A stretch of 64,000 nucleotides of DNA from an uncultured Bacilli bacterium (GCA_947629935.1 CANRFQ010000001.1:95042-159041), one strand, 5' to 3'. Shown: positions 670 through 58,324, numbered from the stretch's first letter. Numbers and translations: made by a program. Notes: generated from the sequence alone by a model not told the origin.

Positions 670-933
670 TCAATTTGCTTGAATCAATACTAATTTTGTA
701 CCATTTCGAATATTAGTATTAAATAATGTAACATCTGATTCATATAGTTCTTTAGTTTTAGCATTATATAATCTATTTGTATTTGTAATTTCAATTTCAT
801 TATTTGTTATTTCACAAATAGCTTTAGTCAATAAGTTTATAATGTTCCCAATTTTTTTAGAAATTGGCAGATAAACGTCAAATTCTTTATCAATTTCCGG
901 AACTAATATTTTAACAAATACTTTATTATTCAT
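670..933 (-). CDS. esaB: YukD/EsaB-like ubiquitin-fold T7SS protein
   Basis: 87 aa, about the size of a beta-grasp protein. It sits immediately downstream of essC with a 1-nt stop/start overlap. Confidence 0.65.
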   Translation of the reverse strand: MNNKVFVKILVPEIDKEFDVYLPISKKIGNIINLLTKAICEITNNEIEITNTNRLYNAKTKELYESDVTLFNTNIRNGTKLVLIQAN

Positions 934-5666: not shown

Positions 5667-6701
5667 TTATTTTCTAAAACATTTTTTTACTCTAACTAAA
5701 ATATTTTTATTTTGTTGTTCTAATTTTTCGTTTACGATATTACATATAACTTTCTGAAAATAGAAAGGACAATTACCTATTCTTATAAAAGCATTTTTAA
5801 AGATTAAATCTTCTTTATCAGTAATCTTATCATGCATCACTTCGGCTAGTTTACCTTCAAGTTCATATACATTAAATCTTGAAAATCTAAGTTGTAAAGA
5901 CCCAGCAGGATATAAATGAATAGATATCTCCCAAGGGCCAATGTTTGCTGCAAATTTGGAATTAATTAAATACCTATCAAGCTTATCATCATAGAAAAAA
6001 CTACCATATTTCATTAAGTTATCGTACATATATGATAAATCGGCAATAAGCTCGTTGCTAATATTTAATGATTGCCTATCGTCCCTATTTAATTCTACCA
6101 AAGAAAAATCTTTATTTCGATTATAAATCTTAACTAACGAATTATCGGGATTTTTCGAAATATATAACTCTTTATTACCAATATTTACAAGTAATTTGTA
6201 TTTATATTCTTCATCTATTATTGCTATAAAACATACCACACTAAAATATTCCATTTTTACATTTCCATATTTTTCGGCAAGTTCTTTATTAAATTTCTTT
6301 AATAAACCATTACATTCTTTATTAGTCTTTACAATAATTTGATTAAGATCGTATAAGCTTATAAAATCTTCAAATTCATGCATCCTATGCGTATATTTAA
6401 AATTATCATCATACAATCTTAAATAATGGTCATCTTGAATTTCTTCTTGGTTTAAAAGAGAATTAATTTCAGTTTCAGCTCTATATTTAAGCCAATTAGT
6501 AATTGATAGTTGCTTTTCTGCTTTGAAATCTAATGCCCTAATCATTCTTGAGTAATAAATATTATAAATTGGTATATTGCTATTTTCCGCCATAATTTTT
6601 TGGACACAATCATTAATTTCGTTTTCTTCTACTCTGGGAATACTAGTTACTATACTATCACTCTTTTGAGGCCAATATAAATCGCAAATTTTTACTTCCA
6701 T
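5667..6701 (-). CDS. hypothetical protein upstream of essC (possible T7SS accessory protein)
   Basis: 344-aa ORF with no TM segments and no recognisable motif. It lies immediately upstream of essC on the same strand. Confidence 0.4.
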   Translation of the reverse strand: MEVKICDLYWPQKSDSIVTSIPRVEENEINDCVQKIMAENSNIPIYNIYYSRMIRALDFKAEKQLSITNWLKYRAETEINSLLNQEEIQDDHYLRLYDDNFKYTHRMHEFEDFISLYDLNQIIVKTNKECNGLLKKFNKELAEKYGNVKMEYFSVVCFIAIIDEEYKYKLLVNIGNKELYISKNPDNSLVKIYNRNKDFSLVELNRDDRQSLNISNELIADLSYMYDNLMKYGSFFYDDKLDRYLINSKFAANIGPWEISIHLYPAGSLQLRFSRFNVYELEGKLAEVMHDKITDKEDLIFKNAFIRIGNCPFYFQKVICNIVNEKLEQQNKNILVRVKKCFRK

Positions 6702-8330: not shown

Positions 8331-11147
8331 TTATTTTACAACGATATTAACTATTTTATTTGGTACGACAATTATCTTAACTATTTCTTTACCTTCTAGA
8401 TGTTTTTGAACTTTCTCATCATTTTTGGCTAGTTCTTCTAGAGTTTCCTTTGAACTATCTACAGGGACTTTAATAGTATTACGTAATTTGCCATTAACAG
8501 AAATAGCTATTCCTACTTCACTATCCACTAATTTTGTTTCATCATATTTTGGCCAAGTTTCTTCTGTTAAAGGTTTATACCCTAGTTCTTCATTTAATTC
8601 TTCAGTTATATGAGGAGCAATTGGATTAAGTAAAATTAACAATAAATGATAATCATCTTTTGTAAGCTCTTCTTTTTCTTCATAAGCATTAGCTAAAATC
8701 ATCAAAGTAGAAACGGCCGTATTATAAGCCATATGAGTTAAATCATATTCTACCTTTTTAATACTTTTATGAATTAAAGCCTCTAAATCTTTACTATATC
8801 CTGTTTTTGATCCTACTTTATCTTTAAGTCTTATCACTTTGTCAATAAATCTTTTGCAACCTTTTAAAGAATCTGTACTCCATGGGGCATCTTGTTCATA
8901 ATTACCCATAAACATTTCATATAAGCGTAAAGTATCTGCACCATATTCATTAATGATATCATCAGGATTAATGACATTTCCCTTTGATTTACTCATTTTT
9001 TCATTATTTGAACCTAAAACCATTCCATGAGAAACTCGGGTCCAAATCATTTCTTTATTGGGTACTAAACCAATGTTGTATAAAAATTGAACCCAAAAGC
9101 GCGCATAAAGTAAATGACGAGCTGTATGTTCCATACCGCCATTATACCAATCAACTTTTTGCCAATATTTCATGGCATCCATTGAGGCAAATTCCTCATT
9201 ATTATGAGCATCCATAAATCTTAAGAAATACCAGGAAGATCCGGCCCAGTTCGGCATAGTATCTGTTTCCCTTTTGGCTGGTGATCCACATTTTGGACAA
9301 GTTGTATTTACCCAGTCGGTTATTTTGGCAAGAGGACTCTCACCAGTATCAGTTGGTTCATATTCAGCAACATCAGGAAGTAGTAAAGGTAAATCTTTTT
9401 CATCCATTGGCACCCAACCACATTTTTCACAATAGATCATAGGAATTGGTTCTCCCCAGAATCTTTGACGAGAGAATATCCAATCACGCATTTTATAATT
9501 TACTTGTTTCTTACCACAATGGTTTTGTTCAAGCCAATTAATCATTTTATTAATAGCATCTTCTTTATTTAGGCCATTTAATTCTTCTGAGTTAATATGA
9601 ATTCCATCACCGGTCATAGCTCCCGGTTTTTTAGCATATTCATAAGTTTTCATATGTAATTCATCTTTAATTTCTTTAGAAATTACATCTTCGCTTACCC
9701 ATTCTACTTTAAAATCCTCATCTTCATCTAAATTTTGCCCTATTTTACTATTATCTTTTAATTTAAAGAAATAGCCAGTACTTTCAATATTAAAATATTT
9801 ATCTTTATTATAAACATAGTAGTGATGATTTATTTTCGGTAACTCTTTAATTAATTCTAAAGAAATATATCCCGTTTCTTCAGCAATTTCCCGTTTAGCA
9901 CACTCAAGTGGAGTTTCTTTATCTTTAATAGTTCCCCCTATAAATAAACGGCCACCTTTTTTACCCCAATTTAAAGTCAAATATTTTTTTTCTTTTTCAT
10001 CATAAACTATCGCAACAATAGAGTTTTTCTTTTCTTCCCCATCGTGTGGCGTACCTGTAACTTCTTCTAAAACTTGAATAATCGGAATATTAAACTTTTG
10101 GGCAAATTCATAGTCTCGATCATCATGAGCCGGCACTGCCATAATAGCTCCTGTTCCATAAGTTGCTAAAACATAGTCACTAATATAAATCGGAATTTCT
10201 TTTTTATTAACAGGATTAATTGCATAAGCTCCGGTAAATACACCCGTTTTTTCTTTATTTAATTCTGTTCTTTCCAAATCATTTTTTAAAGCACAAGCTT
10301 TTTTATATGCATCTACTTCCGCTTTTTTGTCTTGTGTCGTTATAATATCAACATATTTATGTTCTGGAGCTAAAACACAGTAAGTTGCTCCATAAAGAGT
10401 ATCACATCTAGTCGTAAAAACGGTAAAAGTTAAATCATGATGAGCAATTTTAAAATCTACATGTGCTCCTACAGATTTACCAATCCAATTTATTTGTCCT
10501 AACTTAACTTTATCGGCAAAATTAGTATCATCTAAACCTTTTAATAAATCTTCTGAGTAAGAAGCCATTTTAAGCATCCACTGTGATTTTTCTTTTTGGA
10601 CAACTCGACTACCACAACGTTCACAAACGCCTCCCGCTGAATCTTCATTTGATAAAACCGTTTTACAAGTCTCACACCAATTAACTGGTACCTTTTCTTT
10701 ATATGCCATTCCATGCTTATAAAATTGTAAAAATTGCCACTGTGTCCATTTATAATAATCCGGATCAGTTGTCGAAAATTCTCGATCCCAATCAAAAGAG
10801 AAACCAATTGATTTCATTTGTTTTTTAAAAGTTGCAATATTTTCTTTAACTGCTTCTTTTGGATGAATATGATTTTTTATTGCATACTGTTCAGCTGGAG
10901 CACCAAATGCATCCCATCCCATTGGATATAACACGTTATACCCTTGCATTCTTTTCATTCGAGCTAAAGCATCTTGGGCTGTATAACTACGAACATGCCC
11001 AACATGTAACCCAGCTCCCGAAGGATAAGGAAATTCAACTAAAATATAATATGGTGGCTTCTCACTACCATTTATTGCTTTAAAAACTCCCTTCTCTTCC
11101 CATCTATTTTGCCATTTTTTTTCGATTGCTTGATGATTTTTTACCAT
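8331..11147 (-). CDS. leuS: leucyl-tRNA synthetase carrying an inserted Nudix hydrolase domain
   Basis: HIGH motif (PYPSGAGLHVGH), KMSKS motif and the LeuRS N-terminus (EKKWQNRWEE). About 145 in-frame residues contain a canonical Nudix box GGTIKDKETPLECAKREIAEETGY. SD GAAAGGATGG lies upstream. Confidence 0.95.
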   Translation of the reverse strand: MVKNHQAIEKKWQNRWEEKGVFKAINGSEKPPYYILVEFPYPSGAGLHVGHVRSYTAQDALARMKRMQGYNVLYPMGWDAFGAPAEQYAIKNHIHPKEAVKENIATFKKQMKSIGFSFDWDREFSTTDPDYYKWTQWQFLQFYKHGMAYKEKVPVNWCETCKTVLSNEDSAGGVCERCGSRVVQKEKSQWMLKMASYSEDLLKGLDDTNFADKVKLGQINWIGKSVGAHVDFKIAHHDLTFTVFTTRCDTLYGATYCVLAPEHKYVDIITTQDKKAEVDAYKKACALKNDLERTELNKEKTGVFTGAYAINPVNKKEIPIYISDYVLATYGTGAIMAVPAHDDRDYEFAQKFNIPIIQVLEEVTGTPHDGEEKKNSIVAIVYDEKEKKYLTLNWGKKGGRLFIGGTIKDKETPLECAKREIAEETGYISLELIKELPKINHHYYVYNKDKYFNIESTGYFFKLKDNSKIGQNLDEDEDFKVEWVSEDVISKEIKDELHMKTYEYAKKPGAMTGDGIHINSEELNGLNKEDAINKMINWLEQNHCGKKQVNYKMRDWIFSRQRFWGEPIPMIYCEKCGWVPMDEKDLPLLLPDVAEYEPTDTGESPLAKITDWVNTTCPKCGSPAKRETDTMPNWAGSSWYFLRFMDAHNNEEFASMDAMKYWQKVDWYNGGMEHTARHLLYARFWVQFLYNIGLVPNKEMIWTRVSHGMVLGSNNEKMSKSKGNVINPDDIINEYGADTLRLYEMFMGNYEQDAPWSTDSLKGCKRFIDKVIRLKDKVGSKTGYSKDLEALIHKSIKKVEYDLTHMAYNTAVSTLMILANAYEEKEELTKDDYHLLLILLNPIAPHITEELNEELGYKPLTEETWPKYDETKLVDSEVGIAISVNGKLRNTIKVPVDSSKETLEELAKNDEKVQKHLEGKEIVKIIVVPNKIVNIVVK

Positions 11148-11520: not shown

Positions 11521-11745
11521 AAACACATCCTCTAAAGGACGTGTTTAAACGTGGTACCACCTAAAGTTTCTAGTATTACTAGCTTATTTATCCATAAGGG
11601 AGATAACCCATCACATCCAAAAGCAAGTTCATATAATCTTTATTACTAGTTTTCATCAACCACTAGCTTTCTTTAAATATTAATTATATTACTACTCTTT
11701 TTTCTTCGCTTGATAATATTATATTAGATTAAAATAAATTAATCA
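11521..11745 (-). promoter_or_regulatory. T-box riboswitch leader (Leu specifier) controlling the small ORF and leuS
   Basis: Minus-strand TTAGGTGGTACCACG matches the T-box consensus AANNNGGGTGGNACCGCG. A terminator hairpin (AAACACGTCC...GGATGTGTTTTTATTTT) follows. A candidate specifier is GAA-CUU-G. Confidence 0.6.
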
Positions 11746-18107: not shown

Positions 18108-18977
18108 TTAACCTTTACGAGATTTTTTAGTCAATTTTTTTTCATCATAATCCTCTATTAAATAGCTTTGTAAATTAGAAGTGTGCGGACAATATTTAAG
18201 TTTTTTTAAAGCTTTATGCTCTCTAATAAATACTCTTTGTTTAGTTCTCCCAACTATTTTCCCTACTTCATCCAATGTCCGAACTTTACCATCATAAAGT
18301 CCATAATGTAACATTAAAATTTTAACATCTATCGGTTGCAAAATATTGAGAGCTTTTAACAAATCTTGGCTAATAAACTTTTGAATTACTTCTTCTTCAG
18401 GAGTTTGGTTAATATCAGGAATTTTATCACCTAATTCATCATTTTCATCCGCAGTTATTTTTTGATTCAAAGAAATAAGATCCTTAGTACTAAACAATAT
18501 TCTTTTTAATTTATCAACGCTAACTTTAAGTTCTGGGGCTATTTCTTCTAAAGAAGGAATTCGGTTTTCTTCTTTTAAATATTTATATATAACCAATTTA
18601 TATTTTGCTAACAAATCTTGGATTTCTTTTGGGGCTCTGATAGTTTGGCCATACTTTAGTATACTTTGCTGAATATTTTGATTTATCCAATAACCAGCAT
18701 AAGTAAGCAAACTATAATTTTTGGTTAAATCAAAACGTTCTATTGCTTTCATAAAACCAATCAATGCTTCTTGTTTGATATCATCCTTATCAAAAGTAGT
18801 ATCTAAAGGATGATATTTGTGGGCTTGTTGATAAATAAAATTCTGATGCATAGCAACAAGAGCATTAAAATATTGTGAATCATGAGTTTCTTGATATAGT
18901 TTAATTAATTCATGTTCCCTTTTTTGTTGATTACTTTTTTGGGGAGAATTATCATTCTCAGTTTTTAATTCTTTCAT
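18108..18977 (-). CDS. sigma-70 family RNA polymerase sigma factor (RpoD-like paralog)
   Basis: Region 2 (IGFMKAIERFDLTKNYSLLTYAGYWINQNIQQSI) and region 4 (LHYGLYDGKVRTLDEVGKIVGRTKQRVFIREHKALKKL). Confidence 0.8.
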   Translation of the reverse strand: MKELKTENDNSPQKSNQQKREHELIKLYQETHDSQYFNALVAMHQNFIYQQAHKYHPLDTTFDKDDIKQEALIGFMKAIERFDLTKNYSLLTYAGYWINQNIQQSILKYGQTIRAPKEIQDLLAKYKLVIYKYLKEENRIPSLEEIAPELKVSVDKLKRILFSTKDLISLNQKITADENDELGDKIPDINQTPEEEVIQKFISQDLLKALNILQPIDVKILMLHYGLYDGKVRTLDEVGKIVGRTKQRVFIREHKALKKLKYCPHTSNLQSYLIEDYDEKKLTKKSRKG

Positions 18978-18995: not shown

Positions 18996-21900
18996 TTATA
19001 TTCTTTCCTTTAACAACTTTGTTAGCGAATTGGTCAAAGCCTTAGGTTCTAATAAATCATTACAGTTTTCTTTAATAACTTGTAAGCCTTCTTTAATATA
19101 TTTTAGAGTTGTTAATTTATCTAACCCTAATAAATTAGCAATATTTTCTACTGAAAAATTATATCCTATTACTTCTGGTATATATAATATTGTAGCATAA
19201 ACTTTCATATTATAAAGATAATTTTTTAAAGTTAATGATAAGTTAGAGTTCTCTAATATTTCATTAATATTATTATTTTTTAAAGAAAATTGATCTAATT
19301 TTTCAGTACTAATAACCTTAAGAGGAAGATTTATGGGCTGATAATCATATATTTTAAGTTCTTCCCTTTTCCTTAAGGATAGATAAGTATCCTTTAAACT
19401 TTCAAAATCATCATTTTTACTTAAACGATAAACTTTATTTAAAGTTCTTACTATATTACTAATTATCATATAGAATCTAGTATCCTTTTTAGATTTTAAT
19501 GTACTATTAAAATCTTGAGGATTTTCCACAGAATTTTGACAGATTTTCAGATTTGTCTTAGTTTGATAACTTAAAAGTAAATCAACTATTTCCTTAGTTA
19601 TTGGATAAGAAATACGGCTTTCAATATATTGATATAAAGATCCGGAATTAAATTGTGATAACTTAATATCACCGTTTTTATATTCCGCATAATGTTTTTT
19701 TAGTAAACTTTTAAGGCGGTTTAATATATAATCAAAATTACCAGTATCTTCTTGTAAAGTGGCGCGATTAAAAGGGGTTTTAAAGTCCGGACCAAAATAA
19801 TTTTTAAGTGACTGTTGGAAATTTAAAGTTTGACTTTCAATAATATATAAAATATATTCTTCTTCATAATTTAAACGGTCAAATAAATTTAAAGCCGTTT
19901 GTTTTTTTGATGATATATATATTTTCTCATATGTAGCGCATAAAGTCTCGGGATTTTGATTTTCACTTTCTGCATAAACTTTTTCTATTTTACTTTTAAT
20001 TAAAAATATAAAACTACTAAATTTGTTGGCATCTTTGGGAGAAAGTGATTTATAAGTGGCTAATTGATAATCCTTTTCTAAAGCTAAAGATTTAAAGAAA
20101 TTTAATTGTGTTTTAGTTAAATTATTTAAAACTAAATCCATGAAAACTTGGTGAATATTATAATCAGGAATTCGATCTTGAATATAATAAGCTAAAGTAT
20201 ATTTTTTATATAAATTATTTTTTCCAAAAAATTGACCATTTTGATATTCTTTATAGTATCGTCCTAATTTTTTATAAAACTTATTTAAAATTATTTGCAA
20301 ATTTTCCTTTTGTTCGCTACTAAAATTTGCTATATTAATGTCTTCCTTATAATTTTCACCTAGTATACTAATAAATTCATCTTCTAAAAAGCTTGATCTA
20401 CTTAAAAGTCCATCAATATAATTTTGATCATAGAAATAAAAATATTCATAAAGATTAAAGGTAGTTAAAGAATTTAGATTTTTTAAGCGTCTAGGAGTAA
20501 GTAAAATATACTCTTTTTTTAATTCATTAATATTTCCATCTGGAACTTTTTCGTAAGCTAACATTAACTTTTCAATAACCATATTAATAACATGATAAAA
20601 TTTTAGTGGATCATCATTATCTAAATTATAAGCACTAGCTGCCGAAAATGGTTTTTGACAAAATAAGGATAAGGTTTTCTCTTGCTTTCCGGTTAAAGAT
20701 TTTAAAGCATAATCTACTAATTGTTTATCTATTTTTAAATTCGTAACTCTTTTATTTATGTAATCCATAATAGTCATATATTGAAGATTAGTAGTTGTTA
20801 AAAGGCCATTTTGATATTCTGCATATCGACTCTCCAAGTAACTACGCACTTTCTCTAAAAGTTCATTTAATTTATCTTTATCCTGTTTGTTTAAATCATT
20901 GAAATTTACAGACTTTGATAAATCTTCTCCAAAATATTGTTTTAACATTTGCAAACGCTTGGTAGTATCAAGCTTTAGCATATAGTTTATATATTCTAAA
21001 TCATAGTTTTGGTAGTATTCATAAAAATTAAAAATTTCGGTTTTTTTCTGTTCATAATGGTTATTTTCATTAATAATTCTTTTAAGGTTCTCTATATCCC
21101 CATTATTGTGTGCTTGACGATAAGCTTTCTTTAAAATATTGCGAATATTGGCCAATAAATTAGCTAAGATATTTTTGGTTTGAGTATTGACAATATAGAA
21201 AGTCCCATTTTTATAATCTTGACCAAATAATGTTTGAAAAAACTTGATTGTCTTTTCAGAAGAATTATCAAGTACGTAGTCAATAATCTCTTGAGAAAAT
21301 TGATAAGTTTTATTATTAACTAAACTATATATATTACTTAATTTAATGTCATAATTTTGTTGGTGCACTTCTAAAGCCCTTGTCTGCAGTTGCGAATCAT
21401 TATTTAAATTTGAATCATAAACTAAATGTAACTGATAATTTAGATTAATAATAATTTGACAAAAAAGAGCTATATTAATATTATTTAAATTTAAAGATTG
21501 GGAATTTTTATAATCTTCGCTTTGCCAAACCTTTTGTAATAAACCAATTTCTCTTTTACTTAAACTATTTAAAAAAATATCAATAATTTCTTTATGATAA
21601 TTAACTTTTGGATTAAATTTTTGTAAATAGCTATATATATCGATATTAAGAGTACCATTTTCATTAGAGCTTATAAAATCATGAGAAATCACGGAAAACA
21701 ATTGGGAATCATAAAGATAAAAAGGATAATATTTAGCTAGCAAATTTTGAAAATTATATAATTTTGTTAAGCTGTTATTAGATAAACGAATTTTTTCATT
21801 AGTAAATGGGAGATCACTTTCATTCGAATAAGCTTTAATCATTAAATCGAGGTATTCTTTAGGATAATTGGCAAAATATTCGTGCATATTAAGAACTTTT

Positions 21901-23660
21901 AGGGGCACTTTTTCATTTTTTTCGAGTTTTGCAAAAATATATTTTACGCGATTTAAGGAATTGTCATCTATAAAAACCTTAGCTTCTAAATTAGAGCCAA
22001 ATTTAGAAGTTAATAGATTGTAATCTTCTAACGTTAAATAATTTAAATAATTTTGGATTTTCGATTTCGAAAGGGCAAAATATTGATTAATTGTTTTGCT
22101 GTGACATGCTTCGTATTCTTCCTGCTTGGTTTGCAAAGTTTGAGCAAAATCTGCTTGAGCCATTTTAAAAGCATCGGCATAAAAGAATATGCGCAGTAAA
22201 TTAAAATCCTGATTAGGTTTTAAACATAAAGAATCATAATAAGTTTGATTTAGACAATATTTAATATATTCTGGGTTATATTGGTCATATAAGGTGTAAA
22301 TATTAACAAGCTTACCATCTGCAAACAGTTGAAATAAATCCGGATTTTTAATTGCTACCTCTAAAGCATATTCCGATTTAGTTTTAAGAAAAAATTGTTT
22401 ATATTTTTTAATAAATTGGTGAAGTGGCTCCATATTTGGTACATATTGTTGAGGAATTTTTTTCGTTAAACTTTCACCCCAATTTTTCTTTACGCCCTCT
22501 TTAACATAATCAGGCATATATTTAAGAGCAATCTTAATTAACTCTATACTAGTATGAAAATAATCTGTTATTTTAAAGTCCTCGGTTCTTTTAGATATAG
22601 AATTATCTTCCCAATCATCTCTAATATAACTTTGCAAAGGTTTAAATTTATAATAATTTTTTAATTTATTTAAAGCTTTTTTTTCAATTTGTCTAATTCT
22701 TTCTCGCGTTACATTAAATACTTGTCCTACTTCCTCCAAAGTCCTTTCTCGTCCATCACCTAATCCAAATCTTAAAGAAAGAATACGCATTTGACGAGGA
22801 TTTAAAATTTTTTGCATTATTTGTAATATTTCTTTACTTTTAACATTTTCAATAATCTCTCTTTCAATATCTAACTCTGTATCAGGGATAAATTCTTGCA
22901 GTTCACTTTCATCATCCTCAAAAGTGGTTTGTAAAGAAATAGTTTTTTGATTAAATTTTTTGTATTCCTGAATTCTACCAACAGTTACTCCCAACTCATC
23001 TGCAAGTTCTTTTTCAGTTGGTTCTCTTCCTAATATTTCGGTAAGTCTTACTTGCGTTCTAATCATCTTATTAATCTTATCGCGCATATGGACGGGAATT
23101 CTAATAGTTTCAGAGCTATCGGCAATGGTTCTTGAGATACTTTGATTTATCCACCAAGTAGCATAAGTAGAAAATTTATAACCCTTTGTGTAATCAAATT
23201 TATCAATAGCTTTTAAAAGTCCTTCATTACCCGCTTGAATTAAATCTAAAAATTCCAGACTGTGCCCTACATATTTTTTGGCAATAGAAACAACTAAACG
23301 TAAATTAGCTTCCGTAAATTTACGTTTGGCTTCTTTATTTCCTGCCGCTGTAGCTTTGGCTAAAGCAATCTCTTCTTGAACTGTTAATAATTTAATTTGG
23401 CCAATTTCTTTTAAATACACTTTGACAGAATCATCATATACAAAATCATAGTTTTCTTCCTCGTAAAAGTTAGCTTCATCGGTTTTTGAAACTTTTATTT
23501 CTACATTATTTTCTGTCAAAAAATTATATAAATCATCAAAAGAATCACTATTTAACTTTAACTCCTTAATTAAATTATCTAATTCATTTAAAGTGACATA
23601 ACCTCGATCTTGGCCTAATTTTAATAATTCTGCCTTTTTTTCCTTATAATCTTCAACCAT
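18996..23660 (-). CDS. rpoD: primary sigma factor RpoD fused to a ~1200-aa C-terminal repeat-containing extension
   Basis: The N-terminal ~345 aa are a complete sigma-70: region 1.2, region 2 ([20 protein letters not shown]), region 3 and region 4 ([37 protein letters not shown]). The same ORF then continues for about 1200 aa, including at least three ~190-aa tandem repeats (YFGxD...EYxNG...LTxxQ). Confidence 0.85.
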
Positions 23661-28667: not shown

Positions 28668-29744
28668 CTATTTTAAACTCGTTTCTATTAACTTTTTATT
28701 ACTAATTAATCTTTTATTATCGGGTTCTTTTTCCAAAGCTCTATTTACAAATATTAAAGCTAAATCATAAACTCCTAAATTAGCATAAGCTACTGATAGT
28801 AAGTCGTCGATAGTTGCATCCCAACTGGAAGGCTCATTTATATATGATTTATACTTATCTGTTATTTCTAAAGCTTTTAAACAATATTCTTTTACCTTAC
28901 TATAATTTTTTAATGAATTTTCTAGTAAAGCAGCTTCCACTAAAGGTTCCCGTAAATAAGGGGTTTCTTCCATTGCTTTCTGATACCACATTTTCGCTTC
29001 CTCAAATCTGTTTAAACCTATATAAGATCGAGCAATAAAACGCATTGAAGCACTTCTTTCGTCTTTCCAAGTCGCCGTTTTTAATTTTAAATGTTTGAGT
29101 AATGTTTCAATACATTTTTCGTGCATGCCATAAAACATGTATTCCCTTCCCAAATAATGCATATTCCGATCATCTTCAGGATCTTCTTCTACCGAAAGTT
29201 CTAGCAGTTTTAAATACTGCCCTCGTGATTTTGTAGAATCAGGATAATGATTTAGAGTAATATCATCGGTGGTAACAATTTTTTCGGGATACGCACATTT
29301 TAAAACTTCATGAACAGGATGAGTCCATGTATAGCCCTGTCTTTTATGGATTTTATCTATATAGAAATTTACAGCGGGATTGCCACTAGTATCAAAACTC
29401 CAATTATAATTATATCTAACTCGCGTATTATTTTTCCAAATATCTTCAAGCACCTGGCGCCAACCTGGTTCAAAAACCTCATCTAAATCCGTACACACAC
29501 AAATGTCAGCATCTTCGGTAACCAAGTCTAAAGATGCATTTCGCGCGACATCAAAACGCCAAGGATTAATTTCTTTAACCTCAACCTTAACTCCTAATTC
29601 TTTTAATTTGGCCACCGTATTATCAGTAGAACCAGTATCTAGTACACATATTTCATCTGCTTCTTTCATAGATTCATACCAACGACTAACAAACTTTTCT
29701 TCATTCTTAGTAATAGCATAGACACATATTTTATATTTACTCAT
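28668..29744 (-). CDS. family 2 glycosyltransferase with C-terminal TPR repeats
   Basis: N-terminal GT2 core (KICVYAITKNEEKFVSRWYESMKEADEICVLDTGSTDNT). The C-terminal half has TPR-like helical repeats. It lies immediately downstream of the collagen-like gene. Confidence 0.7.
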   Translation of the reverse strand: MSKYKICVYAITKNEEKFVSRWYESMKEADEICVLDTGSTDNTVAKLKELGVKVEVKEINPWRFDVARNASLDLVTEDADICVCTDLDEVFEPGWRQVLEDIWKNNTRVRYNYNWSFDTSGNPAVNFYIDKIHKRQGYTWTHPVHEVLKCAYPEKIVTTDDITLNHYPDSTKSRGQYLKLLELSVEEDPEDDRNMHYLGREYMFYGMHEKCIETLLKHLKLKTATWKDERSASMRFIARSYIGLNRFEEAKMWYQKAMEETPYLREPLVEAALLENSLKNYSKVKEYCLKALEITDKYKSYINEPSSWDATIDDLLSVAYANLGVYDLALIFVNRALEKEPDNKRLISNKKLIETSLK

Positions 29745-29791: not shown

Positions 29792-30568
29792 TTAAGCATC
29801 AAGTTTACGAACATTTAAAGAAACAGTTTCAAAAGTTGCTGTTGGTGTTCCAGATCCTGCTGTTGCTGCTAATGTTATTACGTCATCAGCATTTAAAGAA
29901 ACAATAGTATTTCCACTTATTACTTGATTTTGAGCATTAGTAATATATTGTTCTACAGCAGTGCCAGGAATATCTGTACTATTCCTTTGAACTGATAAAG
30001 TCACGTCACCAGCTACACTTAAATCTGTTGAAGCACTAAAACTAATCGCATAAATACCAGGAGTGCCAATAATTATTGAATTAGTTCCATAAGTAACGCC
30101 TAAGGCTGGACCTTGAGTTTCAATAGGTACCGTTGTTGCCGAAGTACTTAATTGTTCAGTATCAGTTGTTGTATCATATAATCCACCGTAAGCATTTAAG
30201 CCATTTGCAGGACCAGTTGGACCGGTTGCTCCCGTTGGACCTTGTGGACCTATAGCACCAGCAGCTCCAGTTTCACCTGTTGCTCCAGTTGCTCCCGTTG
30301 GACCGATTGGGCCTTGGATTCCTTGTGGACCGGTTGGACCTATAGCTCCGACTAAACCTTGGATTCCTTGGGCTCCAGTTGGACCAGTTGGACCAGTTGG
30401 GCCGGTTGGACCGGTTGGGCCTGCTACACCAGTTGGACCAATAGGACCTTGAACGCCTTGAGGACCAGCGGCTCCTGTAGAACCTACAGGGCCTTGAATA
30501 CCTTGGATTCCTTGAACACCTTGAGGACCGGTTGGACCGAAAGGACCTTGTGGGCCTGTTGGGCCAGT
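29792..30568 (-). CDS. 3' segment of an interrupted BclA-like collagen-repeat glycoprotein gene (Gly-X-Y triple-helix region plus C-terminal globular domain)
   Basis: The open frame has no start codon. It begins [23 protein letters not shown]... and runs through about 43 Gly-X-Y triplets, then a ~130-aa non-repeat C-terminal domain ending ...[10 protein letters not shown]. An in-frame TGA sits immediately upstream. Confidence 0.7.
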
Positions 30569-30606
30569 TCATACAACTATAAGTGAAAGTACAACCTATT
30601 TTTTAA

Positions 30607-32193
30607 TCATTTACTTAATGGTTTTATTTTATAAAATATATTAACATTTTGGTTTTCATCAATCACGATTTTGTCAATTAATGATGATAAAAGTTTTTTA
30701 CTAGGTTGCTTTAAAGATAAAAACTCTTTAATTATGTTTGTATATCTTAAATTATCTTTATTAGCCACTTTATTTTTAATAGCATATAACTTTGTTTCGA
30801 TTTCATTTGCTTTTTTCTTGAAGTCTAATGTTTCATTTGTAAAATCGTTATATTGCCTTTTAAACATTTCGTCATCTATTAACCCTCTCAACTTATCTTT
30901 ATATAGCTTATCAATGTATATTGTTTGCGTTTTTATATCATTTTTTATTTTAGTTAGTTGTTTTTCTAAATCTAATTGTATTTTATTCATTTTATCATTA
31001 TTTTTGAGCAATTCTTCAAAATTACTTGTCTTTAAATATTCATTACATTTCTTTTTAATATCCTTTAATATTTCAGTTTCTAACTCATTATAATCAACTT
31101 TATGGGGAGTACATACATTATATTTCGAAAACTTTTTCCAAAAGTTACAATAACAGATGTTTTTTGTTTTTTTTACTCCATTACAGCTCCATTTTGCTTG
31201 GCCTATGGAAATTGTGTGACCACACTCTTTACATACTAGAAAGCCCCTTAAAAGATATTCTAATGAGTTATCAGTTCTATTTTTATTTTTAGCGTACATA
31301 GCTTGAACGATATTAAAAGTTTCTTCATCGATAATAGCAGGACAAGCCCCTTTTGCTATAATCCAATTTTTTCTATCATTTTTTTTCCTTTTCTTTGATT
31401 TATAACTAATTTTATACTCACGACATTGTGTTAAATCTCCCATATATGTAGGATTTGTAAGTATATCACTTATGGTTGTTTCTTGCCATACCCCATATAC
31501 ACTTGATTTAACACCACGATTCAGATTTTTTTGTATGCTTGGTATAGGTACATTTTCATCAGTTAGTAAGTTCGCAATTTTTTTAACTCCTATACCATTT
31601 ATGAATAAATCATATATTCTTCTAACTATGGTTGCTTGTTCTTCATTTATAACAAGTTCATGCTTATCATATGGTAAATTTCTTTCATAGCCATAAGGTG
31701 CTATACCACCCATAAACTTGCCGTTTCTTTTTTGAGAGTTTAAAGTTGCTTTGATTTTAGTAGATATATCTTTTACATACATTTCATTATAAAATGCCTT
31801 AAACATTAACATATCAGTATTTTGGGATTTATCAAATGTGTCTATTCCATCAGTTAATGCAATATATCTTACATTTTTTTCTTGAAAATATTCAGTTGAA
31901 TAGTATAAACTTTGGGATATATTGCGTCCCAAACGGCTCGTATCTTTGGTAATAACCATATTTATTTTACCATTCTCTATATCTTCAATTAGCCTATTCC
32001 AACCGTTTCTATCAAACTCAGTACCACTCACGCCATCATCAATATATTCGTTAATAAATGTTAAATTGTTTTGTATAATATAATTCATTATATAATCTCT
32101 TTGGTTGCTGATGCTTTGACTTTCATCATCTTTTTCATCATCTCGAGATAATCTTAAGTATATACCTACTTTGTATGTTTCCATTTTATTCAT
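30607..32193 (-). CDS. large serine recombinase (SpoIVCA/phage-integrase type)
   Basis: Resolvase-type catalytic N-terminus (VGIYLRLSRDDEKDDESQSISNQRDY), recombinase domain, zinc ribbon (CKECGHT...CNGVKKTKNICYC) and C-terminal coiled coil. The start was placed at MNKMETYK, which has SD AGAGGAAAG. Confidence 0.85.
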   Translation of the reverse strand: MNKMETYKVGIYLRLSRDDEKDDESQSISNQRDYIMNYIIQNNLTFINEYIDDGVSGTEFDRNGWNRLIEDIENGKINMVITKDTSRLGRNISQSLYYSTEYFQEKNVRYIALTDGIDTFDKSQNTDMLMFKAFYNEMYVKDISTKIKATLNSQKRNGKFMGGIAPYGYERNLPYDKHELVINEEQATIVRRIYDLFINGIGVKKIANLLTDENVPIPSIQKNLNRGVKSSVYGVWQETTISDILTNPTYMGDLTQCREYKISYKSKKRKKNDRKNWIIAKGACPAIIDEETFNIVQAMYAKNKNRTDNSLEYLLRGFLVCKECGHTISIGQAKWSCNGVKKTKNICYCNFWKKFSKYNVCTPHKVDYNELETEILKDIKKKCNEYLKTSNFEELLKNNDKMNKIQLDLEKQLTKIKNDIKTQTIYIDKLYKDKLRGLIDDEMFKRQYNDFTNETLDFKKKANEIETKLYAIKNKVANKDNLRYTNIIKEFLSLKQPSKKLLSSLIDKIVIDENQNVNIFYKIKPLSK

Positions 32194-32439
32194 AATTTTC
32201 TTTCCTCTATTTTTATTTTGTAATATTATTTTCGTTATAAAATATAAGCAAAAATTGTTCCATAATAGCTTGTAATGTTTTACCATTTTCATCAAATGTA
32301 CTTGTTATTTTCATAAGTTCACCTATTTAAACTTATGCTAAATTAATTTTTTATTTTCATAATATTCAAAATTATGAAAACAATGTTATAATAAATTTAA
32401 TAAATAGATGATTTTCAAAATTGAAAGTGAGTTGAAACC

Positions 32440-33042
32440 ATGAATATCGCTGCCATAATTGCAATGTTAATAATGATAATATCTTTTCTCCTTTTTTTTA
32501 TTTTTATATTTATAAAATTTTATAAAATAAAAAATAAAAGTAATGGTTATAAAAAAATCAGAGGAAAATGTGTAGATTATAATAAAGTATTTATGAAAAA
32601 TTCTATAAGTGATGTTGGTGAATGGCGCAAATATCCTATTGTCATTTACGAAGTAGACAATCGACAATATCAAGTTACAGGCCAAACTGCTTACGGACTA
32701 GGGACACCACTAAAAAATATAAAATTTACAGTATTTTATAATCCAAATGATCCTAATGATGCAATTCTAGCCGATCAACATAGATGGTTTCTCATTATAC
32801 TTATAGGACTGTTACTTGGAATTGTATGTATCCTATACTTTTTAATAAATAATTTAATTTTAGGTAACAATATGAAAATTTATACATATCAAATAAAATG
32901 TAATTACAAAGGCTATGTTTATGACGAAATAGAAGAAACAGAGGCCAAATCCAGGGATGAAGCTTTAAATTTAATTAAGGAAAAATACAAAAATTGGCCT
33001 GCAACGTGTGAATTTGAAGAAGTTAATAAATATACAGATTAG
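32440..33042 (+). CDS. membrane protein (DUF3592-like) carried on the intervening element
   Basis: 200 aa. An N-terminal TM helix, a beta-rich middle and a second TM helix. Confidence 0.45.
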   Translation: MNIAAIIAMLIMIISFLLFFIFIFIKFYKIKNKSNGYKKIRGKCVDYNKVFMKNSISDVGEWRKYPIVIYEVDNRQYQVTGQTAYGLGTPLKNIKFTVFYNPNDPNDAILADQHRWFLIILIGLLLGIVCILYFLINNLILGNNMKIYTYQIKCNYKGYVYDEIEETEAKSRDEALNLIKEKYKNWPATCEFEEVNKYTD

Positions 33043-33164
33043 ATAATAAAAAAGCAATATTATTTCTTGAATTTCCGACGTTAAATACCCAAATGTAAGT
33101 TTTAAATGTTGATAAGCAAAAATAAGGCTATAGTATTTTAAAGATTTTATATCTTCTTATAATC

Positions 33165-33284
33165 TTAATTACTTTCACTTTTAAGAGCATGAGTTGGACC
33201 GGTTGGACCACTTACACTACCGGTTGGACCCGTAGGATTACATTGACTACATGTTTGGCGATTATAAATTAATCCATTATTCAT
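33165..33284 (-). CDS. 5' segment of the interrupted collagen-like gene (N-terminal domain plus first Gly-X-Y triplets, terminated early by element sequence)
   Basis: Translation is MNNGLIYNRQTCSQCNPTGPTGSVSGPTGPT. The frame then reads into element DNA (HALKSESN*). The first 31 codons end exactly at the AACT core. Confidence 0.55.
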   Translation of the reverse strand: MNNGLIYNRQTCSQCNPTGPTGSVSGPTGPTHALKSESN

Positions 33285-33307
33285 TTTTTCACATCCATTC
33301 TAATATT

Positions 33308-33335
33308 AATTTATGTGAGATATTAAAAATGCGTT
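33308..33335 (-). promoter_or_regulatory. candidate sigma-K-like (late mother-cell) promoter of the collagen-like gene
   Basis: Minus-strand AC, 16 nt, then CATAAATTA, matching the AC-16/17-CATAnnnTA consensus about 25 nt upstream of the ATG. Low specificity in AT-rich DNA. Confidence 0.3.
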
Positions 33336-44824: not shown

Positions 44825-44899
44825 CGGGTCTATAGCCAAGTGGTAAGGCGTGGGACTGCAACTCCCTGATGCGTTGGTTCAAATCCGACTAGGCCCTCC
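44825..44899 (+). tRNA. tRNA-Cys (GCA)
   Basis: Acceptor GGGTCTA/TAGGCCC (one G-U pair), D-arm AGCCAAGTGGTAAGGC, anticodon loop CTGCAAC, T-arm GGTTCAAATCC and an encoded CCA. Confidence 0.85.
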
Positions 44900-45009
44900 A
44901 GTGGGAAATCTGTCCGAACTTTATAAGTTCAGACTTAAAGTATAAACGTATCAATTTCTAAGAAGTTGGTACTTTTTTATTGTTTTAAGTTAAGAAAGGA
45001 TAGGTTTAT

Positions 45010-45285
45010 ATGATTAAGATTACAAAGAAAGAATTAGAGTTTGATAAAGAATTAAAGAAAAAGATTTTATTTATATGTGATTTTTGTAATGCTAAACCCA
45101 CTATTATTAATGGGAAAATTCGCAAAATCGAAAAAACAAACTTAACTTATATAGAGCCACATAGAGTTATTATTAAAGATACTACTTTTTTAATTTTTAA
45201 TTATTCTAATACTTTGTATATTGATAATTTATCAAATAAGATAGAATTAAAAGATTTAGAAGCCTACATAAAGCAATTAAACTAG
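45010..45285 (+). CDS. hypothetical small protein
   Basis: 91 aa with AAGGA SD upstream. Confidence 0.4.
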   Translation: MIKITKKELEFDKELKKKILFICDFCNAKPTIINGKIRKIEKTNLTYIEPHRVIIKDTTFLIFNYSNTLYIDNLSNKIELKDLEAYIKQLN

Positions 45286-45529
45286 AATTATAAAATAAGT
45301 GCCAGCTTTCTTTAAAAACTTGAAAAAAGCCTTAAAATTAGCTTATGTCTTGACTTTTAAATAAAATTATATATAATAACAACCAAGAAACAAGTTTTAT
45401 GTTTTGTGGGTTAATATAAAACAAGTTAAAAATTAATTATAACCTTTAGAGGTGTCAAAGACATAAAATTGTTTTTAAGTCTTTGTCGCCTCTTTTTTAA
45501 TAAAAAAGATAGAAAGGAATTTAAACTAA

Positions 45530-47374
<1,845 letters not shown>

Positions 47375-52057: not shown

Positions 52058-53787
52058 TTATTTAACAACAATATTAACTAATTTTTTGGCAACAGCAATT
52101 TCTTTAATAATAGTTTTGCCTTCTAATTGGTTTTTAACACTTCCTATTTCTTTGGCTTGTGACTTCATTTTCTCTTCATAAGAAATACAGGTACTTCTAC
52201 TTTACCTCTTATTTTACCATTTATTTGGACAACCATTTCATACGTTTCGTCAACTATTTTACTTTCATCATAACTAGGCCATGATTCATAAGCAATTGTA
52301 TTTGCCTTATTAAATACTGTTTGCCAAATCTCTTCGGTTATATGAGGTGTTATAGGATTTAATAATTTAATAAAGTTCTGCGCGTACTCTAAGTTCCATG
52401 TTTTTTCTTTATATACAGCATTAACAAAAATCATCATTTGGGCAATAGCGGTATTGAAATTTAGAGATTCATAATCTTCCGTCACTTTTTTAACGGTTTT
52501 ATTATAAACTTTATCCAAATTAGGATTATCTTTAAATTCGCGCAAATCCTCATGATAAAGACGCCAAACTCGATCTAAGAATTTTTTAATTCCTCTAACT
52601 CCTTCATCATTCCAAGGCTTATCAGCTTCTAAAGGTCCCATGAACATTTCGTACATTCTTAAAGTATCGGCTCCATATTCTTTTTCGACATCATCAGGAT
52701 TAACAACATATTTAGGAAAACGTTTACCCATTTTAATTCCATTAGAACCTAATATCATTCCTTGATGAACAAGTTTTTTAAATGGTTCTTTAACACTTAC
52801 TAAACCTTTATCATATAAGAAATTATTCCACATTCTAGAATATAGTAAATGTCCAACAGCATGCTCCGGTCCACCCACATACAAATCGACTGGCATCCAA
52901 TGTTCAATTAGCTTAGGATCGGCCAATTTCTGATCATTATGAGGATCGATATATCTTAAAAAATACCAACTAGATCCTGCTGAACCGGGCATTGTTGAAG
53001 TTTCACGTACGCCTTTGACGCCATCAACCTCAACGTTTTTCCATTCAGTAGCATTTTCCAAAGGGGCTTGGCCATTTTTACTTTTATAATCCGCCATTTC
53101 TGGTAAAGTTAGTGGTAAATCTTTATCATCTAAAACAATATCTCTTCTATCTTCTAAATGAATTATTGGAATTGGTTCACCCCAATATCTTTGACGAGCA
53201 AAAATCCATTCTCTAATATGGTAATTCACTTTTTTCTTACCACAACCCATGTTTATAAGTTTATCAGTAATCTTTTCTTTCGCTTCTTCTACCGTTAGAC
53301 CACTAAATTCTTCACTATTAATTAATTTACACCCTTTATTCAAATAATCTTGTTTCTCAAAAGCGCACTTAGTTGTATCACGGCCCTCAATTACTTGAAT
53401 CATAGGAATATGATATTTTTCGGCAAATTCAAAATCTCTTTGGTCATGAGAAGGAACAGCCATAACGGCTCCCGTACCATAATTGGCTAAAACAAAAGCA
53501 CTAAGATATACTGGTACTTCTTGATTATTAACCGGATTTATCGCCATAATTCCTTCTAATTTAACCCCAGTTTTATCTTTATTTACTTCCGTGCGATCAA
53601 AATCCGATTTTTTAGCAGTTTCATTTCTATAATTAACTACTTCATCCCAATTAGTAATACGGTCTTTTAGTTCATCTACTAATTTATTTTCTGAGCTAGA
53701 ACCATAAATGTTATACCGTATATCGTTTCAATACAAGTAGTATAAATATTCTTGCCATGTTTTTTCAATTTCAATAAAGTTATACAT
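52058..53787 (-). pseudogene. leuS: decayed second copy of leuS (leucyl-tRNA synthetase pseudogene)
   Basis: The start, SD AGGAGG and the LeuRS N-terminus MYNFIEIEKTWQEY are retained, then a stop. An internal deletion removes the HIGH catalytic half and most of CP1. A 460-aa ORF (52165-53547) covers the C-terminal half with a degenerate KMSKS (KMGKR). The final ~37 aa (...KKLVNIVVK) are in a different frame. Confidence 0.8.
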
Positions 53788-57868: not shown

Positions 57869-58324
57869 CTACATACTTTTGCGTGATACTAGTAATTGAT
57901 CAGGCATTAAATATATAGTTTCATTCTCACGCATTACTCGATCTTTATCAACTTTAAAACGATTAGCAACAATATCTAAAGTATCTCCTTCGGTTGTAAT
58001 ATAATAACTATAGCCACTTTTCGGAATTAAAATTTCTTGACCAGGATAAATATAATCATTCATTGTCAAACCGTTTAAAGCTGCTAATAACTCGGGATTA
58101 ATATTATAACGTCTGGCTATTTGATATAAATTATCGCCTTTTTCAATAGTATAATATTCAAAATATTGTTCTTTATTTTTCGGAACGATAATTTCCATCC
58201 CTTGTCTTAATAAAGTAGCATATTCCATATTATTAATATCTTTTAACATATCTACCGTCGTATTAAATTTTTTAGCGATAATTTCTAAATTATCTCCTTG
58301 TTTAATTGTATATTTATCAAACAT
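57869..58324 (-). CDS. LysM-repeat protein (three LysM domains)
   Basis: YTIKQGDNLEIIAKKF, YTIEKGDNLYQIARRY and YITTEGDTLDIVANRF. The start was moved to the ATG that has TAGGAGTG SD. Confidence 0.75.
   Translation of the reverse strand: MFDKYTIKQGDNLEIIAKKFNTTVDMLKDINNMEYATLLRQGMEIIVPKNKEQYFEYYTIEKGDNLYQIARRYNINPELLAALNGLTMNDYIYPGQEILIPKSGYSYYITTEGDTLDIVANRFKVDKDRVMRENETIYLMPDQLLVSRKSM

Follow-up and report, generated by a model that had tools for sequence, protein, structure and literature searches.

Intervening elements that split sporulation genes are known from sigK, spsM, spoVFB, spoVR, gerE and yabG, with skin, SPbeta, vfbin, vrin and gin among the elements, and the directionality factors of such systems are small proteins that usually belong to no known family. 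The skinCd element of Clostridioides difficile, situated in sigK, combines a constitutive, sigmaA-driven large serine recombinase (LSR), CD1231, with a directionality factor of 72 amino acids (aa), CD1234, which depends on sigmaE and SpoIIID and has its transcription start 14 bp upstream of the ATG (PMC5025042). The gin element in gerE of Bacillus cereus encodes GirC together with GirX, a directionality factor of 42 aa (PMC5595907). In both gin and SPbeta/spsM (SprA/SprB) a small directionality factor is expressed in sporulation, and the rebuilt genes have their effect at the envelope or surface of the spore (PMC5595907, PMC4191935). A different type of LSR is termed multi-targeting if one recombinase cluster of 90% identity is found in more than three diverse target genes, and DUF4368 is typical of the TndX-like multi-targeting clade (PMC10083194). 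Here we analyze a stretch of 64,000 nucleotides from an uncultured Bacilli bacterium (GCA_947629935.1 CANRFQ010000001.1:95042-159041; hereafter the window, with a G+C content of 27.8%), in which a gene for a BclA-like collagen protein on the minus strand is interrupted by an LSR element of 2,626 bp.

The account of this locus with the best support, which we regard as reasonably probable, is that an element inserted here conservatively, and in principle reversibly, and that it belongs to an LSR family with many targets, specialised on the Gly-Pro-Thr repeats in the DNA of spore-surface genes. It builds on the insertion itself with its att sites and target motif, on precise empty sites, on the recent mobility of the family, and on a recombinase and an adjoining micro-ORF (a very short open reading frame, ORF) that are intact and under constraint. 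An earlier note on this DNA had pointed to no described case of an intervening element in a bclA-type gene; in agreement with this, we found no description of an intervening or integrative element in a bclA-type or collagen-like gene in the full-text literature searched, a body of text that leaves most subscription-journal papers outside its scope.

The split gene and the ends of the element

The element (30568-33193) interrupts the minus-strand gene within a Thr codon, at its nucleotides AC. The 5' fragment (33195-33284, minus strand) starts with the ATG at 33284 and encodes a Cys-containing N-terminus without a signal peptide, followed by the first Gly-Pro-Thr triplets; its frame reads MNNGLIYNRQTCSQCNPTGPTGSVSGPTGPT and then continues through eight element-derived codons (HALKSESN) to a stop at 33165. 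The 3' fragment (29792-30566, minus strand) comprises about 40 Gly-X-Y triplets and a 138-aa C1q/TNF-like C-terminal domain, its Gly-X-Y frame picking up at 30567/30568, immediately past an in-frame TGA, and ending with a stop at 29792. AACT is common to both junctions, and a deletion of 2,626 bp in any register over these bases results in a single ORF of 288 aa. The earlier note had postulated exactly this in-frame restoration, as well as the splitting of a BclA-like gene by an LSR element in the same orientation, and both claims are borne out by the ORF fragments, the domain matches, the recombinase and the empty sites described below.

The joined 288-aa protein displays the BclA-type architecture of a Gly-X-Y region followed by a BclA_C-like C1q/TNF trimerisation domain. 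The collagen half of this assignment is backed by a profile match (Pfam Collagen, 7.9e-19), but the match to BclA_C (3.4e-8) reaches 33.8 bits and thus stays under the gathering cut-off of 38 bits. A phmmer search of the PDB with the C-terminal domain gave no match, and its sequence identity to BclA is about 20%. The AlphaFold2 model of this domain (predicted local distance difference test score, pLDDT, 94.2) retrieved BxpB of B. anthracis (8d02), the C-terminal domain of BclA (2z5w/1wck) and ExsFA of B. cereus (7r1m) in a Foldseek fold search, with template-modelling (TM) scores of 0.74-0.77 and E-values of ~1e-8, and additionally resembles some phage fibre knobs and C1q/TNF domains. The N-terminus MNNGLIYNRQTCSQCNP, judged by eye only and with no motif search run, bears no likeness to the exosporium-targeting motif of the B. 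cereus group, our yardstick being what we take to be the B. anthracis-type form of that motif. The collagen-like paralogues have only short Cys-containing N-termini in common and lack a signal peptide, which fits assembly inside the mother cell. Immediately downstream of the collagen gene, and separated from it by a hairpin and a T-run, lies the gene for a GT2-TPR glycosyltransferase (28668-29744, minus strand), as had been pointed out in the earlier note.

The ends of the element can be defined to the base. The crossover core is an AC dinucleotide, which at attL (33193-33194, minus strand) lies inside the Thr codon ACT and at attR occupies 30567-30568 (minus strand). Next to it stand a left element arm of 23 nt, TCATGCTCTTAAAAGTGAAAGTA (33170-33192, minus strand), and a right element arm of the same length, TACTTTCACTTATAGTTGTATGA (30569-30591, minus strand), each forming one half of attP. 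The two are imperfect inverted repeats around the core (19 of the 30 compared positions match), so that the inverted repeats reported earlier at equal distance from the core are refined to 23-nt arms with an AC core. Joined, the element ends form an imperfect palindrome of ~48 bp, tACTTTCACTTaTanGnGtATGA-NN-TCATnC..AAGTGAAAGTa. In shuffled sequence 0 matches to the 23-mer of the right arm are expected, and this, together with the colinear intact orthologues, indicates that the structure of the element is not due to chance. The predicted attB junction with the C-terminal domain of the window strain joins GGTCCAAC to TGGCCC (in its longer form, GGTCCAAC to TGGCCCAACAGG), and the predicted attP junction of the circle joins GTATGAAC to TCATGC (in its longer form, TTGTATGAAC to TCATGCTCTTAAAAGTGAAAG).

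Three genes are found between the arms. The recombinase (30607-32193, minus strand) is a full-length protein of 528 aa, encoded in the orientation of the collagen gene, with the domains of an integrase-type LSR: Resolvase (PF00239, 8.2e-24), Recombinase (PF07508, 7.4e-24) and Zn_ribbon_recom (PF13408, 2.9e-5), the last at 24.8 bits against a cut-off of 25.3 and annotated in close homologues, as well as a coiled-coil-like segment at residues ~380-470 that was recognized by inspection only. It contains the motif YLRLSRDD, matches the PHROG 95 integrase family (2.8e-100), and has the TnpX catalytic domain as its closest solved chain (2mhc, 1.8e-24). Relative to its homologues the ratio of non-synonymous to synonymous differences (pN/pS) is 0.12-0.20. 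In the window element the recombinase gene has no recognisable promoter of its own and starts 19 nt after the micro-ORF (32213-32314, minus strand), which encodes the 33-aa peptide MKITSTFDENGKTLQAIMEQFLLIFYNENNITK, a candidate recombination directionality factor. The divergent cargo gene (32440-33042, plus strand), unique to this element, codes for a 200-aa membrane protein that is weakly DUF3592-like and is preceded by a sigma70-like promoter, TTCAAA-16-TATAAT with TG (32365-32392).

Empty versions of the site were found in three loci (L023, L024 and L025) reached through proteins at least 90% identical to the GT2-TPR protein of the window. All three are syntenic (ldh, ZIP transporter, a gene for a 409-aa protein, collagen gene, GT2-TPR, pduL, pepF, dus), their flanks are 93-96% identical in DNA to those of the window, and their collagen gene is uninterrupted, encodes 289 aa and shows the empty site at the same position, with the junction GGTCCAACTGG unbroken where predicted. 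The window gene excised in silico is colinear with these orthologues and 100% identical to them in protein over the N-terminus and the collagen part (150 aa), confirming that the 5' fragment belongs to a real gene and is no unrelated pseudo-ORF. As the orthologous site is empty in close relatives, the insertion is polymorphic and no fixed feature of the lineage. A side observation concerns the C-terminal domain (window 29792-30205 versus L023 7083-7952), which is only 59% identical, against 100% for the rest; it looks from these sequences like a swapped or fast-evolving, surface-exposed BclA-like domain.

A second precise pair of filled and empty sites is provided by a 6,894-bp element present in L009 and absent in L046, with flanks that are 99.3-99.8% identical and alignments that overlap by 2 bp at the core, thereby confirming it. 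In all four empty sites (L023-L025 and L046) the common 2-bp core of attL and attR and the precise, conservative insertion agree to the base. The exact insertion of the window is known from two assemblies only, and this, like the missing promoter of its recombinase, would fit a fixed and decaying remnant with a pseudogene, or an assembly chimera. We regard either as very improbable. The filled junction and the cargo recur in L045, an independent low-coverage contig from another sample that differs by a 31-bp deletion, which makes an artefact very unlikely, and the junctions lie exactly at the core used throughout the family. Against the fixed scar, an alternative that the earlier note had considered, speak the intact recombinase, micro-ORF and arms, as well as two intact gene halves whose N-terminus and collagen part are identical to those of functional orthologues.

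A mobile family in collagen-repeat DNA

Recombinases 76-92% identical to that of the window element are encoded in 14 loci from metagenome-assembled genomes (MAGs) and on numerous contigs of gut metagenomes. The MAGs bear the label 'uncultured Bacilli' and come mostly from rabbit; one is labelled Ca. Coprovivens and another 'Mycoplasma sp.'. Together with a clade of recombinases at 56% identity, for which collagen repeats are likewise the target, this family occupies at least 17 different sites, all of them in GGNCCN-AC-NGGNCC collagen-repeat DNA. Wherever the ends are present they consist of the same arms and 2-bp core, and the sequence outside is Gly-X-Y coding DNA. The target consensus GGNCCN-AC-NGGNCCNAC, derived from 17 distinct attR and nine attL flanks, places the crossover in the Thr codon of Gly-Pro/Ala-Thr-Gly-Pro. 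Because GGNCC is self-complementary in pattern, the target is a pseudo-palindrome, which suits a dimeric serine recombinase. Elements with an AC core are inserted in the orientation of the collagen gene, and those with a GT core (L009, L018, L019 and the 56% clade) are inverted, as predicted if a non-palindromic central dinucleotide fixes the orientation.

Several observations point to recent movement. An identical recombinase, P0143, adjoins at least five different collagen genes and flanks with differing C-terminal domains (C1q-like, beta-helix and others), and the interiors of elements on contigs with different genes are 99.3-99.9% identical, with the homology stopping exactly at the core. 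Two elements, 126 nt apart, reside in one gene in L014, and a second recombinase element is present in the same collagen gene in L009/L046. As a separate observation, related recombinase elements occur in tandem or nested in or beside one collagen-like gene at several positions (L009 1249-2853 and 12218-13744, L014 2543-2730, L046 17084-19200), and such pile-ups could permit deletions or inversions within the repeat arrays. Judged from these sequences, the family is one of mobile, multi-target LSR elements with no single domesticated site. The skin/SPbeta/gerE-type architecture claimed in the earlier note consequently stands with respect to the precise insertion by an LSR, but not with respect to a single fixed site, since the insertions are polymorphic, spread over many sites and found in both orientations.

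The elements range in size from 2.6 kb (window, L011, L015) to ~10 kb (L013). The large ones have in common a gene for an XRE-type helix-turn-helix (HTH) protein, genes for zinc-ribbon membrane proteins and several unknown genes, and the mini elements contain single cargo genes that are unrelated to one another. A prophage nature was rejected, as the IMG/VR viral contigs contained no relative of the recombinase and the large elements no match to phage structural PHROG or Pfam families. A further clade at 51% identity (P0238, L036-L043) has the same micro-ORF and interrupts a functionally uncharacterised gene that is not of the collagen type and is located ahead of a gene for a CtpB-like protease, which may represent another gene-intervening case; collagen targeting is thus no property of the whole wider family.

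These properties raise the question of a cut-and-paste serine transposon or stochastic phase switch, in which low-frequency vegetative excision and re-insertion of the TnpX/TndX kind would toggle collagen genes and the micro-ORF would be a regulator or leader peptide. P0143 with its five different flanks, and the 17 distinct attR flanks of the family, place the family, by a count of flanks, within the multi-targeting definition (PMC10083194); the near-identical copies at different sites and the TnpX-like catalytic domain point in the same direction. The recombinase, however, has no DUF4368 match, the core is AC or GT and not GA, and the att arms are long palindromes typical of an integrase attP. 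Moreover, the larger elements have a promoter, TGnTATAAT or TATAAT, between the micro-ORF and the recombinase, which renders a leader-peptide role unlikely. We accordingly view a transposon or switch of this type as improbable.

More serious as a rival is a plain selfish insertion, whereby a multi-target LSR element would have knocked out one of several redundant collagen-like genes with no programmed excision, and the association with the spore surface would merely mirror where GGNCCNACNGGNCC DNA occurs. The polymorphism among close relatives, the identical elements in different genes and in both orientations, and the presence of several elements in one gene are all in favour of it, as is the sigmaA-like promoter of the recombinase in the large relatives. 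The same can be said of the window itself, where Gly-Pro-Thr-repeat DNA is confined to the BclA-like gene. The features that count against this rival reside in the recombination module and are considered in the next section.

Apart from this family, a second LSR (614 aa; gene at 45530-47374) is encoded in the window right after a tRNA gene (44826-47374, plus strand, the region extending on to ~52000); downstream of it are several ORFs that match no family and a gene for an HTH protein. It was rejected as a relative of the element recombinase at 23% identity, and the region is probably another integrated element.

Micro-ORF, promoters and the link to sporulation

A micro-ORF of 30-37 aa, with the consensus MKITSTFDENGKTLQEIMEQFLIIYFNE, lies directly upstream of the recombinase in every element, and it is kept in the main clade as well as in the 56%, 53% and 51% clades. 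Across 13 sequences pS is 0.49 and pN 0.08, and the resulting ratio of 0.17 indicates that purifying selection acts on the protein. Neither Pfam nor PHROG has a family for it, and about 16 representative small-protein clusters match it among 1.8 billion representatives. Its position, its conservation and the precedent of the known systems suggest a recombination directionality factor.

In four clades a CATAnnnTT box (CATAAGTTT, CATAGAATT, CATATTTTT and CATAGTTTT) is located 26-29 nt before the ATG of the micro-ORF, compared with a background of three in 146 non-collagen control genes. In the window the box CATAAGTTT (32332-32340, minus strand) stands 26 nt upstream of this ATG and resembles a sigmaE-like -10 element, CATAnnnT. 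The vegetative-type TATAAT promoter before the recombinase is absent in the window element and in L011, L012 and L015. These are the features that a plain selfish insertion accounts for poorly: a sporulation-type box has been kept with the micro-ORF through four clades, the mini elements lack a vegetative promoter and yet have both recombinase and micro-ORF under purifying selection, and known elements built in this way undergo mother-cell excision (PMC5025042, PMC4191935, PMC5595907). We hence rate that rival, the main one, as unlikely though deserving of attention. Two observations on the large elements may be added here. A perfect 16-bp palindrome, CTTATGTCGGCATAAG, overlaps the CATA box (L001 ~5780-5820, L009, L018, L019, L021), is absent in the mini elements, and may be the operator for the HTH protein of the large elements. 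Upstream of the micro-ORF there is also an 8-bp inverted repeat (CATAAGTT...AACTTATG), through which, to go by the sequence, the start codon of the micro-ORF could pair with the CATA box.

The collagen gene has a promoter-like site of its own (33307-33334, minus strand), consisting of AC (33334-33333), a spacer of 17 nt and CATAAATTA (33315-33307), 31 nt upstream of the ATG. The sigmaK-like promoter seen in the earlier note can be retained in the sense of a sequence pattern shared by such genes, with an AC-17 and not an AC-16 spacing. All collagen-like target genes examined (window/L023, two in L010, L011, L015, L018, L019, L009, L028 and L032/L033) have a CATAnnnTA box that begins 26-31 nt ahead of the ATG, with AC 16-18 nt further upstream in about half of them, and the background is at most six of 141 control genes with the collagen genes counted in. 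We take CATAnnnTA with an upstream AC to be the sigmaK-type pattern by the B. subtilis/C. difficile consensus. The few non-collagen genes with a CATA box encode LysM/SafA-like proteins, GT2-TPR transferases and a GerM-like protein; the GT2-TPR orthologues beside the collagen genes in L010 and L012 have CATA boxes of their own, and the box of the GerM-like gene is of the CATAnnnTT type found before the micro-ORF. As an observation in its own right, a three-LysM protein with a weak SafA/ExsA-type match is encoded in the window at 57869-58324 (minus strand), its gene having a CATATCTTA box at the collagen-gene distance from the ATG; to judge by this box, it is possibly a coat-assembly gene of the same regulon.

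Sporulation-specific genes were recognized in one host that carries a 92%-identical element: a gene for a GerM-like protein (Germane, 1.2e-24), preceded by genes of the SpoIIIAH family (PF12685) and for a 68-aa GerE-family protein, lies beside the collagen target, indicating that at least this host has them. The compact spoIIIAH-like/gerE-like/gerM-like cluster next to a collagen-like gene in L046-L048 (9172-10945), from an uncultured low-G+C gut Bacilli genome, provides direct evidence of sporulation genes in this group. From the CATAnnnTA boxes of the paralogues, the modelled fold of exosporium proteins and the absence of a signal peptide we infer a sporulation role for the split gene. Ca. 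Coprovivens belongs to the order RF39 (PMC8035907), for which both sporulating and non-sporulating species are predicted (PMC10868615).

On these grounds the following mechanism can be proposed. The recombinase would pair the ~48-bp palindrome of the element ends with the GGNCCN-AC-NGGNCC pseudo-palindrome, with crossover at the 2-bp core in the Thr codon. Since serine recombination is conservative, excision would restore the 288-aa ORF exactly. The micro-ORF, as directionality factor, would be transcribed from a mother-cell (sigmaE-like CATAnnnTT) promoter, and in the mini element of the window the recombinase, having lost its own sigmaA-type promoter, would be co-transcribed with it. If the CATA box is indeed a mother-cell promoter, both proteins would be confined to the mother cell; in the germ line the element could not move, and its behaviour would be that of a developmental intervening element. 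Excision would then be limited to mother cells undergoing sporulation, early enough for the restored gene to be driven by sigmaK, and the germ line would keep the insertion, as with skinCd, SPbeta and gin.

A number of points weigh against this mechanism. Given a mobile family and a polymorphic insertion, a tolerated knock-out explains the window equally well without programmed excision. The directionality-factor role of the micro-ORF is based solely on position, conservation and precedent, the CATA box is missing in two main-clade elements (L015 and L016), and the promoter calls are -10-like boxes in 28% G+C DNA with unclear -35 elements. No attP junction was present in the viral contigs searched, one metagenome scan returned a single short extra locus, and the exact fused protein is absent from a collection of 15 billion proteins. 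The check for sporulation genes called for in the earlier note gave a divided answer: SpoIIIAH-, GerE- and GerM-like genes occur in the host of the 92%-identical element, which is another MAG of the same data set, but none was recognized in the 64-kb window, so that we can only infer sporulation of the window's organism. A tblastn search of 467 kb with approximate protein queries (Spo0A, SpoIIID, SspA, SpoIVA, SpoVS, CotJC, SpoVT, SigK) returned RpoD-like genes only. Taken as a whole, the skin-like mechanism, with its directionality-factor micro-ORF, mother-cell promoter, lost recombinase promoter and mother-cell excision, is plausible and in our view has somewhat less than an even chance of being right. 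Still more tentative is the proposal of a compact element family specialised on Gly-Pro-Thr-repeat palindromes that uses a directionality factor of 30-37 aa, the smallest yet proposed, for excision from spore-surface genes in the mother cell only.

Some further features of the window lie outside this locus. The first ~340 residues of a 1,554-aa protein (18996-23660, minus strand) form a complete RpoD-like sigma factor with regions 1.1 to 4, and ~1,200 residues of unknown function complete the protein; right after its gene comes a second sigma-70-family gene of 289 aa (18108-18977, minus strand), and in L023 and L025 a single 2,368-aa product is found at the position of these genes. A leucyl-tRNA synthetase of 938 aa (8331-11147, minus strand), under T-box control (11532-11714, minus strand), has an inserted NUDIX domain (residues 375-491) behind its editing domain, and a separate 460-aa fragment of such an enzyme (52165-53547, minus strand), consisting of part of the editing domain and the anticodon-binding domain, is encoded 41 kb away. 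Finally, a 1,509-aa EssC-like protein with two FtsK/SpoIIIE ATPase stretches (933-5462, minus strand) hints at a type VII secretion locus.

Comparison with known systems

To the known intervening elements this family would add a class of targets, the collagen-like (BclA-type) genes of the spore surface, and a group of hosts, uncultured gut Bacilli of low G+C content, with one related host MAG in RF39. The recombinase has apparently evolved to recognise the coding repeat GGNCCN-AC-NGGNCC, which would offer it many equivalent sites for insertion, in genes of importance to the terminal mother cell alone. If the more tentative proposal of such a specialised family is true, uncultured RF39-type gut Bacilli hold several heritable and individually reversible interruptions of exosporium genes, and a mobile element hides in genes for which only a terminal cell has a use. 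The ~48-bp attP, the recombinase of 528 aa and the candidate directionality factor of 33 aa make up a minimal unit that might be of use for studies of directionality and could possibly become a compact recombination tool, its target being short and defined. Furthermore, the sigmaK- and sigmaE-type boxes and the spoIIIAH-, gerE- and gerM-like genes offer sequence-level evidence of sporulation, with several variable collagen-like spore glycoproteins, in uncultured gut lineages.

The joined protein resembles BclA, BxpB and ExsFA of the B. cereus group and BclA1-3 of C. difficile in its short, signal-less N-terminus, its Gly-Pro-Thr-rich Gly-X-Y region and its C1q/TNF-like C-terminal domain. The locus likewise resembles BclA-type loci in the adjoining glycosyltransferase and in the putative sigmaK-type promoter, bclA1 of C. 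difficile being a sigmaK target (PMC5025042). It differs in the low identity of the C-terminal domain to BclA, the sub-threshold BclA_C score and the Cys-containing N-terminus, and its localisation is predicted.

The multi-targeting LSRs and TnpX/TndX (Durrant et al. 2022, PMC10083194) are comparable in that one recombinase cluster occurs in several target genes sharing a motif, and TnpX offers the nearest catalytic structure. In contrast to them, the family described here is free of DUF4368, has as its target a Gly-Pro-Thr coding repeat with an AC/GT core in place of an AT-rich or GA-core site, and possesses a conserved partner micro-ORF.

With gin and SPbeta the family has in common an LSR and a small directionality factor, here a candidate, and gin is a non-phage element just as the elements described here, which have no phage structural PHROGs. 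The recombinase nevertheless belongs to another clade, and the targets of gin and SPbeta are single and fixed, whereas the present elements come from uncultured low-G+C gut Bacilli known from sequence alone. The likeness to skinCd extends further. Both are LSR elements within a gene (a mother-cell sporulation gene in skinCd) with a small, family-less accessory protein of acidic type close to the recombinase, and the large elements of the present family follow the order CATA box, micro-ORF, TATAAT, recombinase. Unlike skinCd with its one site in sigK, however, they occupy many collagen-repeat sites and genes and are polymorphic and recently mobile; with 30-37 aa their accessory ORF is half as long, the window element measures 2.6 kb with one cargo gene, and its excision is predicted.

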